Source: a virus
Taxonomy: Duplodnaviria; Caudoviricetes
Virus record (IMG/VR): IMGVR_UViG_3300029288_000081
Span: 32,001 to 96,000 of that record
Length of the DNA: 64,000 nucleotides
Direction: 5' to 3' (one strand)
How positions within the stretch are numbered: the stretch's first letter is position 1; the number at the start of each line of letters is the position of its first letter. Below are positions 6,257 to 63,999 of this stretch, piece by piece. The notes under the pieces are model-generated. The model had not been told where the DNA came from. It saw nothing but the letters and a program-made list of their open reading frames with translations, and made no database searches. The translations under genes were made by a program, and so were the position numbers.

Positions 6257-6709
6257 ATGAGCTACGCACGCGGCCTCGGACAGGCCAAGATGGTTCCGGG
6301 CCAGATCAGCTTCCAGACCCTGCCCGAGGGACGCTCTGGCTTCCCGAGCCTCGACCCGCTCGTGCGGGCCGGCCTGCCGATCGCTCCGTACATCGAGCAT
6401 GGCTCCTGGGCGACGGGGCGGCCGGCGATCATGCGCTACGGGCTCGACCCCTACCGCGGGCTCGCTGGCGACTCCCTCGGGCAGATCCTGACCGGTTCGC
6501 TCTGCGACCCCACGGCGGTCTCAGCGGCCTTCCAGACGCGCCTGCGCGGAGCCCTCAACGCCGGCAGCCAGGCGGCCCTGGTGGGCGGCGCGGTGGCCGG
6601 GGTGGTAGGTGCCCTCTCCGGCAAGCGCAGCCCCATCATCGGGGCCGTGGCGGGCGCGCTGGTGGGTTGGACCGCCAACCTCGTCCTGACGGCCACGCAC
6701 AGAGCGTGA
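6257..6709 (+). CDS. membrane protein with MSYARGLGQ leader (putative virion protein)
   Basis: TAAGCT -10 box 7 nt before ATG; GLGQ and SLGQ motifs; C-terminal Gly-zipper TM segments. Confidence 0.7.
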   Translation: MSYARGLGQAKMVPGQISFQTLPEGRSGFPSLDPLVRAGLPIAPYIEHGSWATGRPAIMRYGLDPYRGLAGDSLGQILTGSLCDPTAVSAAFQTRLRGALNAGSQAALVGGAVAGVVGALSGKRSPIIGAVAGALVGWTANLVLTATHRA

Positions 6710-6734
6710 GCGCCAAGTGCAGAGGGAAGGCGCC

Positions 6735-60118: not shown

Positions 60119-63100
60119 CTACCCGCCCGAGCGCTGTCGGACAACACCAACGAGGTCCATGGTGTACTTCTGAGCGTCGGCCACGGTGTGAAAGCCCGCC
60201 TTCGCGGGGATGCCGGGGAATCCGCTGGTCGAGACGTAGAAGTTCCCGTCGCTGCCGGTGATGGCGATGGCGAACTCGGCGTCGTGTCGGTCGTCGACCG
60301 CTGTGCCGTCTCGGTGGAGACGCAGGTACCACTCGGTGCCGCTGCTCATGAACCAGACGTAGATCTTGTCGGTCGCGACCGCCTTGCCCTCCTTCAGGAG
60401 GTACGTCTTCGCTTCGCCCAGAGACTCGTCTCGCTGGCGGCGGCGATCGTAGTGGTCCATCCCACCCTGGTAGCGCATCACCTCTGCGCCGCGCTGGCCC
60501 GCGTAGCCCTTGCGCAGCACCCACTCCTTGCCGGAGCGCGTCCAGGTGAAGACGTGGATGCCTTCGGGGGTCGTCGCCGCCTGCCTCACACGAGGGTCCT
60601 GCGGGACGGTGGCAGGATCCCACGTCTGCGACAGGAGCCGTGCGTCATCGTCCGTGATGCCCTTGAACGCACCGGCCGCAAGAGCGGTGTCGTGAAGCTG
60701 CACGATGAGCTTCGGCTTCAAGATGAGCGACGGCCTCCACGGCGACGAACTCCTGTTGTATGCACCCAGCATGCTTTCTACGTCACGCTGAAGCAGTTCG
60801 CCGCGACGGCCCGCCTCGATCGCCACGTGCTTGAGGGTGTCGGGCTCGTTGTTGAGTTCCGCCTGGCCGGTGAGGCTTCTTCCCGTGTACCACTCCAGGA
60901 CCGCCGTGACGCGGCCGACGATGATGTCCCACGGCGTCGACTTGGTGGCCTCCTTTTCCTTCCTGATCTCCGCGAAGCGAGCGCGAGTCTCGGCACGGAT
61001 CGTCTTGAGCTGCGCCTGCACCAGCTCCAGCATCCCGCGGTGAGCCGCCTTCATGTTCCGCGTCAGCTGGTTCGCGAACCCGCTGTCGTGGTCCATGAAG
61101 CCCTGGAGGTGCGTGATCTCGTGGATCGCCGTCGAGCACAGCTCCTCGACACCATCGATCGTCGACAGGTCGATCCTGTCTCCCGAGTGCGTCCAGACGT
61201 GCTCGTGCGCCTCGTAGTCGTAGCGCCCCCTCTCGAACTTCAGAGGGTTGATCATCAACCAGTCGGTGTCTTCCCTGTTCGTGTACGCGCCCAGCACCGG
61301 CAGCTTGTTGATGCCGTCCAGCATCATGATGAAGCCGACGCCGAAGGGGCGGAACTCTCCCAGGACGTTGAGGCCGAACTTGCAGGCTTCGGTCCATGCA
61401 CGGAGCAGGACGATGTACTTCGCCTCCATCGTCTCCGGTTCGAGGCCGGCGGGCGGCTTCCAGAACGGCATCTGGTTCGCCATGAAGAGGTCCGGCTTCC
61501 ACATCGCGTAGCGGACGGCCGTGGCGATCTGCTCGGTTGTCGTCGCCTGCGTCGCGGAGTGCTTGATGAGGCGGCTCGCGGTCTCGCGCGAGGACTGCAT
61601 GCGCTGGGCAGTCTCTTCTTCCGGGGTCACCGGAGGCGGCGCCGCAGCCGCATCCTCTTCCATCGCCTTCGCGGCCTCCTCGGCAGCCTCCTCCGCGTCG
61701 GCGACCGTCGGCGTCTTCTTCTGCGCCTGACGCTTCGCGAGCTGGTCGGCGATCTTGGCCACCGCCTTCGCGGCCACCTCAGCCGCCCGGCCCTCACGCA
61801 CTTCGATCGCGCCGCTTCCGCGGTAGATCTTCTCCGCCTTCCACTTCTTCGATCGAAGGAGTGCCTCGGGCTCGACCGCGAGACGCTCCTTCAGCTTCTC
61901 GACGAAGCTGCGCGCGGGTCCGATGAGCGAGTTGCGGCTCGCGTCGAACACATACTTGGCCGGCGCGTTGACGTCCACGTACACGACGCCGGGGATGTCG
62001 TTCGACCACTCCTCGAACATATAGACGCCACGAGCGCGCACGTAGAGGCCCTTGTTCGCCCGAGCGTTCCGGTGGTGGTGAGCGACGATCTCGCCGACCG
62101 TGTTGCCGTTCTCGTCAGCGATCCCCACCTTCGACACTTCCTCGCCGCCGATGAGATCGGCAGCGACCGTCTTGCCGTTCACGCGAACGCGAACGTTCGG
62201 CAGGTACGAGCGACCCAGGAGCTGCTGTGCGTACGTCTCAGCAGTCGTCTGCGTCAGAGGCATCCACACCGTCACGCGCGTACCCTGGATCGGACTAGCG
62301 CTCTGGTGGATGCCCGGCGGCTCCATCACGCTCTCGTGCTGTCCGAAGGCTACGAGGTCTCGCGTCTCGACCTTCCAGCCGAGCCACGGGAAGAGGATCA
62401 GGTTCTTCGCGTCTCCGAAGCCGCCTACCGCGTCATGCCCCTTCACGGACCCGCCACGCGTGAGCAAGGCTCGACGGAGAATGTCTGCGTCCATGCCGAC
62501 GCCGTTGTCGTAGGCGGTGACGACCATCGCCTCTGCCTCGGCACCGGTCTCGATGTCCTTGTACGTCCCGGCAGCGATGTTCCAGTCCATCTGCGTCGCC
62601 TGCGCGTCACGAGAGTTCTGGGCGACCTCTCGCCACCACGCGAGTTCCCAGTTGCGGTAGCGCTGGAGGAGCTTGCTCCAGAAGTCCGGCGAGACCCCCA
62701 TCGCGACCAGCGCGTTGCGGCTGAGAGGCGGATGCTTCGCGTCCCCGATGATGTCGCCCGACGGGACAGCCGAGGGGAACCTGTGACGCACCGGCTCTCT
62801 CAGGACCTGGAAGAAGAAGATGCTGCCCTCGACGAACGGCATGTCCATGCCGCCCTCGAAGAGCGGGTGCCACCCGTCGAGCGCCTTGGCGACCGCGTAC
62901 GCCGGGAAGGCGCTCCCGGTCTGGTAGAACCCCGGCGAGCTGAGGAACGCGTCCACGTCGTCGATCGCCTCGATGACGATCGGACTCTCCCTCGTCCCCG
63001 TCCCGCTCGTCTTCTCGAACGTGCGACCGCTCGGGCCCACGTCGAAGTTCCGGGTCATCGAGCGACGGCTCGACCGCCGCTTGCTCGACCGGCGGGTCAC
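60119..63100 (-). CDS. GHKL (Hsp90/MORC-like) ATPase with zincin-like domain and Arg-rich MTRN leader
   Basis: REVAQNSRDA, DNGVGM, GGFGDA, GTRVT; AIHEITH...HD..F. Confidence 0.8.
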   Translation of the reverse strand: MTRRSSKRRSSRRSMTRNFDVGPSGRTFEKTSGTGTRESPIVIEAIDDVDAFLSSPGFYQTGSAFPAYAVAKALDGWHPLFEGGMDMPFVEGSIFFFQVLREPVRHRFPSAVPSGDIIGDAKHPPLSRNALVAMGVSPDFWSKLLQRYRNWELAWWREVAQNSRDAQATQMDWNIAAGTYKDIETGAEAEAMVVTAYDNGVGMDADILRRALLTRGGSVKGHDAVGGFGDAKNLILFPWLGWKVETRDLVAFGQHESVMEPPGIHQSASPIQGTRVTVWMPLTQTTAETYAQQLLGRSYLPNVRVRVNGKTVAADLIGGEEVSKVGIADENGNTVGEIVAHHHRNARANKGLYVRARGVYMFEEWSNDIPGVVYVDVNAPAKYVFDASRNSLIGPARSFVEKLKERLAVEPEALLRSKKWKAEKIYRGSGAIEVREGRAAEVAAKAVAKIADQLAKRQAQKKTPTVADAEEAAEEAAKAMEEDAAAAPPPVTPEEETAQRMQSSRETASRLIKHSATQATTTEQIATAVRYAMWKPDLFMANQMPFWKPPAGLEPETMEAKYIVLLRAWTEACKFGLNVLGEFRPFGVGFIMMLDGINKLPVLGAYTNREDTDWLMINPLKFERGRYDYEAHEHVWTHSGDRIDLSTIDGVEELCSTAIHEITHLQGFMDHDSGFANQLTRNMKAAHRGMLELVQAQLKTIRAETRARFAEIRKEKEATKSTPWDIIVGRVTAVLEWYTGRSLTGQAELNNEPDTLKHVAIEAGRRGELLQRDVESMLGAYNRSSSPWRPSLILKPKLIVQLHDTALAAGAFKGITDDDARLLSQTWDPATVPQDPRVRQAATTPEGIHVFTWTRSGKEWVLRKGYAGQRGAEVMRYQGGMDHYDRRRQRDESLGEAKTYLLKEGKAVATDKIYVWFMSSGTEWYLRLHRDGTAVDDRHDAEFAIAITGSDGNFYVSTSGFPGIPAKAGFHTVADAQKYTMDLVGVVRQRSGG

Positions 63101-63999
63101 CTCTGCCCCCAGGACCGAAGCCGGCTCTTGCGCGGTCCGCTGCGGCGCCGGTTCGGCTGCATGCGGCTGCGGATGATGAAGGCGGCGATGGTCCCGGTGA
63201 GCGCGATGCCGCCGGTGATGAGGAGGTACTTCTCGGTCTTCGTGATTCCGTACTTCACGTCACGCTCGGGCTCGGGCGGCTCGTAGGTGCCCTCCTGCCC
63301 GAGCGCATCGATCTCGTCGCCGTCCAGGCCCATGACCGCCAGGGTGCCGGCCATCGACGGTGACAGCGTGTGCCGAGCCATCGGTGTGCCCGGGTTGATA
63401 CGAGCTGCTCCGCGCGAGGAGAAGAACAGCCCCTGCTCATTGAACCATGGCGTGGGGTCCTGGTTGTACAGTGCTTCCGCAGGCGAACGCGGGTACGGCC
63501 CGGGGAAAGGGCTCGTGCCGTCGGGACGCGCCGTACGAATTTCGAGGTGCAAGTGCCGGTTCATCGGTCGCGGATTGCGGCCACCGGCGCGTGCTCGCGC
63601 TGCGAACGTCTCGACCGACTCGCCCGGCAGGGGCGAGAACTGTCCGTTGGTCGTGTTGCCCATGACGCCGATGCGCTGGCCGCCGACCACGGGCTGCCCC
63701 GGTGTCACGGTGACGGAGCCGTCCTTGAGGTGCGCGTAGAGGGCGTACTTGCCGCCGTCGTGACGGATCACGACCGCGTTGCCGTACCCGTTCATCGGAC
63801 TGCCAGGCACGTTCTGGGAGACGAGGGTGACCGTCCCGCCCTTCACGGCGTAGATGGGCTCGTCCTCCCTCGACCGGCGGGTGGAACCGATGTCTAGACC
63901 CGCGTGCATATGGGGGGCGCCCGACGCACGGGAGGGTCGGACCCCGTACGTCGAGACGAGCCTGGAGGTCGAGAGGGCAACGGGCGGTGAGGATGCCAT
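63097..63999 (-). CDS. M23 family peptidase with C-terminal TM and MQPN-Arg tail (start may lie at or beyond the window edge)
   Basis: HAGLD, GYGNAVVIRH, YAHL, GNT, HLHLE. Confidence 0.9.
   Translation of the reverse strand: MASSPPVALSTSRLVSTYGVRPSRASGAPHMHAGLDIGSTRRSREDEPIYAVKGGTVTLVSQNVPGSPMNGYGNAVVIRHDGGKYALYAHLKDGSVTVTPGQPVVGGQRIGVMGNTTNGQFSPLPGESVETFAARARAGGRNPRPMNRHLHLEIRTARPDGTSPFPGPYPRSPAEALYNQDPTPWFNEQGLFFSSRGAARINPGTPMARHTLSPSMAGTLAVMGLDGDEIDALGQEGTYEPPEPERDVKYGITKTEKYLLITGGIALTGTIAAFIIRSRMQPNRRRSGPRKSRLRSWGQR

Follow-up and report, generated by a model that had tools for sequence, protein, structure and literature searches.

In phage T4 (the capsid-targeting sequences of Alt and the internal proteins, which the prohead protease gp21 removes) and in phiKZ and SPN3US (propeptides cut by gp175 and gp245), short terminal tags are carried by otherwise unrelated cargo proteins, ART among them; the propeptides hold several sites each, with a hydrophobic residue at P4, the fourth position before the cut, and their cargo is ejected with the DNA. 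The prohead protease of SPN3US prefers Val at P4, and P4-hydrophobic codes are known for giant-phage prohead proteases (PMC10052503). In a second group, the polyvalent proteins, ART, PcfJ-like, kinase, and other effector domains are combined in mosaic cassettes with a zincin module, and the proteins are predicted to be packaged and autoprocessed, as for P1 DdrB (Iyer et al. 2017, PMC5512222). Here we describe a signature that resembles both, found in a 64,000-nucleotide stretch (the window, in whose numbering all coordinates are given) that spans bases 32001-96000 of a single 171,466-bp contig from an uncultivated bacterial virus (IMG/VR record IMGVR_UViG_3300029288_000081; 66% GC; 100% complete by CheckV estimate). 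The signature is a hydrophobic-x-x-asparagine tetrapeptide (hxxN) located next to arginine (Arg) runs, short leaders, or module joints. Like the phage tags, it is short, has a hydrophobic P4, and marks unrelated proteins that include an ART, and like the polyvalent proteins, one of its carriers (g138) is a mosaic cassette. All counts rest on a codon-log-odds gene call of the full 171,466-bp genome (261 genes covering 91% of the sequence), which was built because the high GC content yields hundreds of spurious open reading frames.

In the genome-wide count, 21 of the 261 proteins end in [VILM]-x-[KRPA]-N plus an Arg run. Asn (2.6% of residues across the genome) precedes 23 of the 126 Arg-run onsets, whereas 200 shuffles of the proteins gave a mean of 2.4 such cases and a maximum of 8. 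Open noncoding frames, even richer in Arg, show no preference for Asn before Arg runs, and the enrichment in the proteins, approximately 7-fold, is restricted to their termini. With Asn numbered as P1, all 21 tags have K, R, P, or A at P2 and 16 have V, I, L, or M at P4, the exceptions being mostly P-[VI]-x-x-N, one position off. The strict motif occurs 36 times within the last 40 residues of proteins (17.9 expected) and 21 times within the first 30 (13.5 expected); plain hxxN is barely enriched at N-termini, and MxxN at positions 1 to 4 was found 10 times against an expected 6.8. The positional bias proposed in an earlier note on this sequence is thus clear at C-termini but weak at N-termini. 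Tandem hxxN sites are present in leaders and tails, as in multiply cut propeptides. Once the tails had been trimmed from 26 tagged proteins, 23 families without BLAST similarity to one another remained, which bears out the note's claim that the motif is shared by unrelated proteins. We conclude that the tag is a genuine, protein-level, clade-wide, directional signature.

Several gene ends overlap the start region of the next gene, as a DNA-level repeat (a regulatory element or recombination linker) would allow. However, the Arg codons (CGC, CGT, CGG, AGG, and CGA) and the codons and residues at P4 to P2 differ freely among the tags, which indicates that the constraint acts on the protein and that there is no DNA repeat; in addition, the tag is conserved at 30% protein identity, and chance is contradicted by the shuffle and alternative-frame controls. 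Both explanations are effectively refuted already, and we assign them almost no probability. Three other candidates were ruled out: a compositional artefact by the same two controls, a helix C-cap or Schellman motif by the frequency of Pro at P2, and an N-glycosylation sequon by the lack of a consistent N-x-S/T.

A transmembrane segment (TM) lies upstream in 15 of the 21 tagged proteins; it is Gly/Ala rich, and hxxN follows 7 to 16 residues beyond it, directly before the Arg run. Together with the many orthologues that end in just a TM and RRRR, this arrangement is what an ordinary positive-inside topology signal in a high-GC, Arg-rich genome would produce, with Asn being incidental. Nevertheless, six of the 21 tagged proteins (g098, g185, g243, g253, g257, and g258) lack a TM, so that the tag exceeds a mere positive-inside anchor; soluble proteins also carry the motif, at their N-termini and at internal joints, and the excess of Asn is confined to Arg runs at termini. 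A pure topology signal is therefore very improbable.

The preferences at P4 to P1 are alike in three contexts, namely, N-terminal leaders, internal joints, and C-terminal tails, while P1′ depends on context, being Arg for C-terminal tags, Gly for internal joints, and Pro for Arg leaders at N-termini. hxxN always lies N-terminal of the border, whichever side holds the Arg run, and such a fixed orientation is predicted by a cleavage or recognition site but not by a symmetric linker. Leader or tail and hxxN are gained or lost jointly, as one unit. We tentatively favor, at slightly less than an even chance, the reading in which hxxN is a directional site for processing or recognition, coupled to Arg handles on virion cargo, with cleavage after Asn. 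hxxN, or more precisely (P)-[VILM]-x-[KRPAQ]-N, would most likely be P4 to P1 of a maturation cleavage. Virion-destined proteins would be linked by it to portable Arg-rich handles, short leaders, or, within an effector cassette, the following module. Cargo would be co-loaded through binding of the Arg (and Arg/Ser) runs to the viral DNA or a packaging surface; processing after Asn would then free membrane proteins, wall-degrading enzymes, and effectors for ejection; and short protamine-like Arg peptides would stay on the DNA. Tagged protein types include an ART, a PcfJ-like protein, the kinase-like/zincin cassette, a GHKL-type ATPase, and an M23 peptidase, which are kinds packaged and ejected by other phages (PMC5512222), and we infer that the tagged proteins are in the virion and that their Arg tails bind DNA. 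As the earlier note had read for replication and metabolic genes, helicases, RtcB, and glycosyltransferases are without the motif.

The eight C-terminal tags cited in that note, as a TM followed by the motif and an Arg run, are all present in the window, with two departures from the description: g098 has no TM, and in g091 the motif is internal and lacks an Arg run. Features given as a range are on the minus strand unless stated. In g093 (21665-22153), the tag ISAN-RRRRRVRR follows the TM at 21668-21703, and orthologues retain it as VSPN-RRRRR, VAKN-RRRRR, LNAN-KRRRR, or MSPN-RRRR. The neighboring g094 (22150-22563) bears a double tag, LRKN-RRR-VRRN-RRRGSRR, after a Gly-rich TM (22153-22206); its Asn is retained in relatives G004 (LRKN-G-RSRRRR), G001 (VASN-A-RRRSRR), and L041 (MQAN-RRRRR). 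In g091 (20733-21074), VTRN-HR at 20853-20870 forms a joint between the TM and a conserved basic domain of 40 residues, and the aligned position reads LAKN, VERN, and VKRN in three related genomes. The plus-strand gene g098 (24591-24884), for which no orthologue was found, ends in VTPN-RRRRGRGRRRR (24837-24881). VRRN-RRSERRTSRR follows the last TM of g115 (36746-38935) at 36749-36790. The tags of g131 (46567-47322; VKRN-RRRGR at 46570-46596) and g135 (49317-49988; VRRN-RHRS at 49320-49343) also follow a TM; orthologues of g131, ending in KYKKRR or RKGGR, are without Asn, which is found in only one of six g135 orthologues (L040, PRKN-RRH). Finally, g156 (63097-63909) encodes an M23 peptidase (Pfam PF01551, E value of 5e-16) with a TM and the tag MQPN-RRRSGPRKSRLRSWGQR at 63100-63162, which is retained in the closest relative, G004, and replaced by plain RRRRR in L041, L043, L044, and G002.

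Other recurrent elements accompany these tails. The unit RRTSRR or RRSSRR recurs in the Arg tails of g243, g253, g258, and g115 (36749-36790), as well as in those of most homologues of g115; basic-directed kinase sites look similar, as does the C-terminal domain of the hepatitis B virus core protein, and g138 encodes a kinase-like domain. A second signature, MSY with G[LM]G(Q) a few residues downstream, opens g072, g091, g093 (MSYAGLG), and g131 (MSYAMMGLGQ), with starts at 6257, 21074, 22153, and 47322, respectively, so that its carriers include several of the tagged small membrane proteins. In g111 (33129-33485, minus strand), LSEWN-RRRRD is conserved near the C-terminus in four viruses, with Trp at P2 and a P4 that is not hydrophobic; this stretch is probably part of a helix rather than a tag.

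The N-terminal form was less uniform. Of the seven items cited for it, those in g074, g112, g115, g138, and g155 stand up in homologues, g123 does not, and g073 amounts to bare residues 1 to 4. The Arg leader of g115, MMARRLKRRSSRR-LRRN, precedes a TM (38885-38935), and relatives carry Arg leaders of variable length that end in [LIV]x[RQK]N, with Pro as the usual next residue. For g155 (60119-63100), the GTG start at 63100 overlaps the stop of g156 (GTGA), making the long form with the leader MTRRSSKRRSSRRS-MTRN (63047-63100) the likely product. Relatives at 55 to 75% identity have Arg/Ser leaders that end in PVRRN, PIRPN, LVSN, or LASN, while distant GHKL-type relatives, in which PF13589 (GHKL/HSP90-like ATPase) is detected, have no leader and begin directly with the domain; comparison of these sequences indicates that the Arg/Ser leader is an addition by the viral clade. 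No match to g155 was found among cultured phages by tblastn, and single-protein scans of IMG/VR with g155 and g115 gave none. In g112 (33482-34948; PcfJ-like with pentapeptide repeats), the motif is MS-LTPN (34931-34948); the paralogue g004 also has LTPN (L[TV]PN being kept), and homologues with the same domain at 24 to 41% identity have LVPN, VIPN, MQPN, or MQRN, some behind a basic leader, MKKRTSRPRPEH. The ART-like g074 (7142-7975, plus strand) has a leader (7142-7207) that ends in LSPN right before the LYHGS core, and its relatives show RRSRRN/PP, VERN/G, IARN/G, LTHN/E, or VARN/P at the same border (slash), some with modules upstream; ART relatives are also fused to NUDIX or DUF5661. MAAN of g123 is kept at 76% identity and becomes AAD in an orthologue at 36% identity, which leaves this N-terminal motif unsupported. 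MRKN of g073 lies behind a Shine-Dalgarno sequence and is no evidence either way, being just residues 1 to 4.

The cassette encoded by g138 (50798-52678) comprises a leader, a kinase-like domain, a variable part, DUF5661, and module B, a zincin-like segment of 145 residues with HEFGH (50801-51235). Its joints bear LTAN (52649-52660), MASN (52004-52015), and LAPN (51236-51247). The family is a mosaic in which the kinase-like, variable (GNAT or Arr in relatives), DUF5661, and zincin modules are shuffled, and it thus combines several unrelated effector domains in mosaic architectures, as polyvalent proteins do. In an all-against-all BLAST comparison, 37% of the homology breakpoints fall within 2 residues of the Asn of hxxN, versus 5% at random, with a mode of 0. 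Module B (the last 145 ± 2 residues) is present in every member, always behind an hxxN, although this tetrapeptide is variable (LAPN, VTPN, MEPN, MAKN, LTRN, and others), as are the modules upstream of it. RATIEDIE is almost invariably preceded by Asn, while approximately 10 residues of the leader come and go. In an AlphaFold2 model of full-length g138, LTAN lies at the end of a disordered leader, MASN exactly where the confidently modeled kinase-like domain (residues 11 to about 222) stops, and LAPN in the linker from the DUF5661 helices to module B. The breakpoints and the model place the motif at domain borders and module joints, and the cassette suggests that, in effector proteins of the polyvalent type, a defined and predictable site can be present where domains meet. 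The leader, PKIVSL(SPxxxAAAG) at 52649-52678, is conserved even where the next module has been swapped (G001), and some relatives have Asn on either side of it (MKRN/PKIVSL..LVPN/), the relatives compared being P0097, G001, and G004; it may itself be a targeting peptide.

The tag extends beyond this genome. Among 37 homologues of g115 (29 to 85% identity), nearly all full-length ones keep the N-terminal Arg leader and a post-TM xxN-Arg run with RRTSRR, and the run lengths drift. In 31 metagenomic loci, 33 of the 240 called proteins are tagged, and Asn is the commonest residue before Arg runs (29/121). Three complete related genomes (153 to 162 kb), in which g234 has no match, hold 5 to 7 tags each, versus 21 in the present genome, with Asn before 9 to 11% of Arg-run onsets over a background of 2.3 to 2.8%. 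The tag is thus conserved in relatives, but its Asn cap is often lost in homologues and is not invariant. Across these relatives, the Arg tail is an add-on, gained and lost together with hxxN and unusually frequent in the genome studied here.

A number of observations weigh against cleavage after Asn. Orthologues of g131, g135, g156, g240, g245, g257, and g258 often have plain RRRR or RRK, or no tail, including in viruses whose other proteins retain complete tags, and tail removal cannot therefore be obligatory. The maturation protease proposed in the note fits the clade-wide border motif of fixed orientation on packaged or ejected protein types, but not an obligatory removal of tails. An Asn cap is present on only about one-third of the C-terminal Arg runs; the Arg/Ser termini of g095 and g096 (22595-23376, minus strand; MAAAKKAAPRRRSSKRAP.. 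and ..RRRTSRPLAGPRSRRPAAAKRRTSRGR) have no Asn cap, showing that Arg termini do not all carry hxxN. Natural truncations with Asn as the last residue are nearly absent. P1′ is Pro in 16 of 29 N-terminal leaders, which is unfavorable for most endopeptidases. The three candidate proteases, g138 module B, g261, and g226, include none that can be singled out or tied to Asn specificity. Under the positive-inside rule, TM proteins would have their Arg tails on the cytoplasmic side, and by analogy with PRD1-like assembly, in which that side is turned towards the coat, the tails would not face the DNA. Cleavage itself is wholly inferred.

Several of these points would be accommodated by an uncut docking or anchoring module, in which the Arg run is a permanent anchor to DNA, coat, or membrane and hxxN is bound by an assembly factor or acts as a structural stop. 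The conservation and border data suit binding no less than cutting, orthologues with plain Arg tails show that a tail of this kind functions uncut, Pro at P1′ poses no problem, and N4 vRNAP and ArdC are delivered unprocessed despite their metallopeptidase (MPTase) domains (PMC5512222). Even so, Pro at P2 in about a third of the sites is hard to square with a pure helix stop, hxxN is kept where there is hardly any leader to insulate (MS-LTPN in g112 and MPKIVS-LTAN in g138), and the need for the motif at every joint of a multimodule cassette is left unexplained. We regard docking or anchoring as the main rival, though a somewhat unlikely one.

Cleavage between Asn and Pro is known for FlhB/YscU and reovirus mu1, and self-cleavage by Asn, through asparagine-lyase chemistry and a succinimide, could be triggered by the particle environment with no dedicated protease. 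Asn is the sole invariant residue of the motif, and P1′ accepts Pro, Gly, Arg, Ala, and Asp. Viral coat proteins make up half of the known asparagine peptide lyase families, and the chemistry tolerates Pro at P1′; known Asn lyases, however, require a folded catalytic context (PMC3207474), whereas the sites described here lie in disordered linkers and termini of 23 unrelated families, and their P4 and P2 preferences suggest recognition by a partner. Self-cleavage is thus improbable.

If a protease cuts after Asn, as we tentatively favor, the genome offers the three candidates named above. HExxH is invariant in module B throughout the g138 family. Its AlphaFold2 model (predicted local distance difference test score, 77.5) gave weak though consistent Foldseek matches, with SPRTN, abylysin, and selecase at the top (best E value, 0.016); its Atlas neighbors are ImmA/IrrE, U49, and M48, and no Pfam match was obtained. 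The module may correspond to the MPTase of polyvalent proteins, where zincin MPTases are predicted to autoprocess the packaged proteins (PMC5512222). The SprT-like g261 matches PF10263 (E value of 6e-14), and its orthologue in G004 itself begins MRTSRKPRRTSRKR-VARN/P. The third candidate, g226, resembles transglutaminase-core cysteine proteases (Atlas score, 0.97); like module B, it is conserved in all four genomes. Among approximately 50 proteins scanned with Pfam, out of a genome that was not scanned exhaustively, there was no exosortase, rhombosortase, or sortase. A P1-Asn code might possibly depend on a DNA-activated zincin of the SprT/SPRTN type or on a protease with a transglutaminase fold. 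Legumain and other asparaginyl endopeptidases (MEROPS C13) require Asn at P1 strictly; we know of no C13 or caspase-fold legumain-type protease from phages, and none was detected among the proteins scanned.

Six-frame searches of the genome for Terminase_6N, Phage_portal, HK97 Phage_capsid, and an FtsK-type ATPase, the few families tried, gave no match. Among the largest genes, PHROGs recognized replication and metabolism proteins alone and left the late proteins unmatched, and Pfam had almost no matches to 20 late-block proteins. With more doubt than confidence, we suggest that large (150 to 260 kb), apparently non-tailed bacterial viruses use a portable Arg handle with an Asn-specific site, at either terminus or between modules, to package membrane proteins, wall-degrading enzymes, and anti-host effectors along with the genome and then to release them, with protamine-like peptides as a product.

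The window also contains 30 tRNA genes, 28 of them in a cluster at 27877-32379 (minus strand) and the others at 16476-16631 (plus strand), where an unusual tRNA-like gene, whose anticodon has 4 bases (gcga), was called by ARAGORN at 16476-16556. The cluster includes three tRNA-Arg genes (CCG, ACG, and CCT) and one tRNA-Asn gene; the short gene calls g106 to g109 within the tRNA stretch may be spurious. The 705-residue g086 (16994-19111, minus strand) matches PHROG families for PhoH-like proteins (residues 75 to 403) and RtcB ligase (395 to 705), with a weak match to ribonucleotide reductase, and may be a fusion or an intein-bearing gene.

The literature searched contains no description of an hxxN-Arg tag, and a maturation code based on P1 Asn, which we consider possible but rather doubtful, would have no described counterpart in phages. 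If hxxN serves as a code for processing or loading, sequence alone would reveal which proteins an entire uncultivated virus clade packages and ejects, virus maturation proteolysis would gain a new specificity (P1 Asn), and it would become apparent how DNA is condensed and tethered in a large bacterial virus that contains a membrane; the tag would also be a compact, portable means of loading foreign cargo into such particles.

Of the systems outside phages, adenovirus offers a parallel for the Arg runs. Its core proteins pVII and pX/Mu are processed in a eukaryotic host by AVP, a DNA-activated cysteine protease of clan CE. Its Arg-rich, DNA-condensing segments, like the Arg runs described here, are bounded by short sites with a hydrophobic P4, and cutting leaves free Arg peptides on the DNA, as proposed for the present tags. 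The adenovirus sites, however, are (M/I/L)XGX-G or (M/I/L)XGG-X, with no Asn, whereas here Asn occupies P1, with K, R, P, or A before it. In the PEP-CTERM/exosortase, GlyGly-CTERM/rhombosortase, and LPXTG/sortase systems, the motif precedes the TM and is cut outside the cytoplasm by a membrane transpeptidase or protease. These systems likewise place a tripartite C-terminal signal with a TM and a basic cluster on many unrelated proteins, but the motif described here lies beyond the TM, on the Arg side, and also occurs without a TM and at N-termini. The asparagine peptide lyases (nodavirus, tetravirus, picobirnavirus, and reovirus coats; YscU/FlhB) provide a precedent for cutting after Asn in virus maturation, including before Pro (PMC3207474); they act at single sites within a specific fold, in contrast to a portable tag on unrelated proteins. 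The T4-type tags share the short terminal format but differ in having Glu at P1, in (L/I/A/S/G)-x-E, where all tags here have Asn and no recurring Glu-based border was seen among them. Apart from the C-terminal propeptide of the protease itself, T4-type tags are solely N-terminal, carry no Arg run, and are not found on membrane proteins; their enzyme is the assemblin/S78-type protease of tailed phages, of which none was found here. For the polyvalent proteins, which g138 resembles, no defined joint motif has been described; in the virus studied here, the joints share hxxN, the same motif that caps the Arg tails of small membrane proteins.

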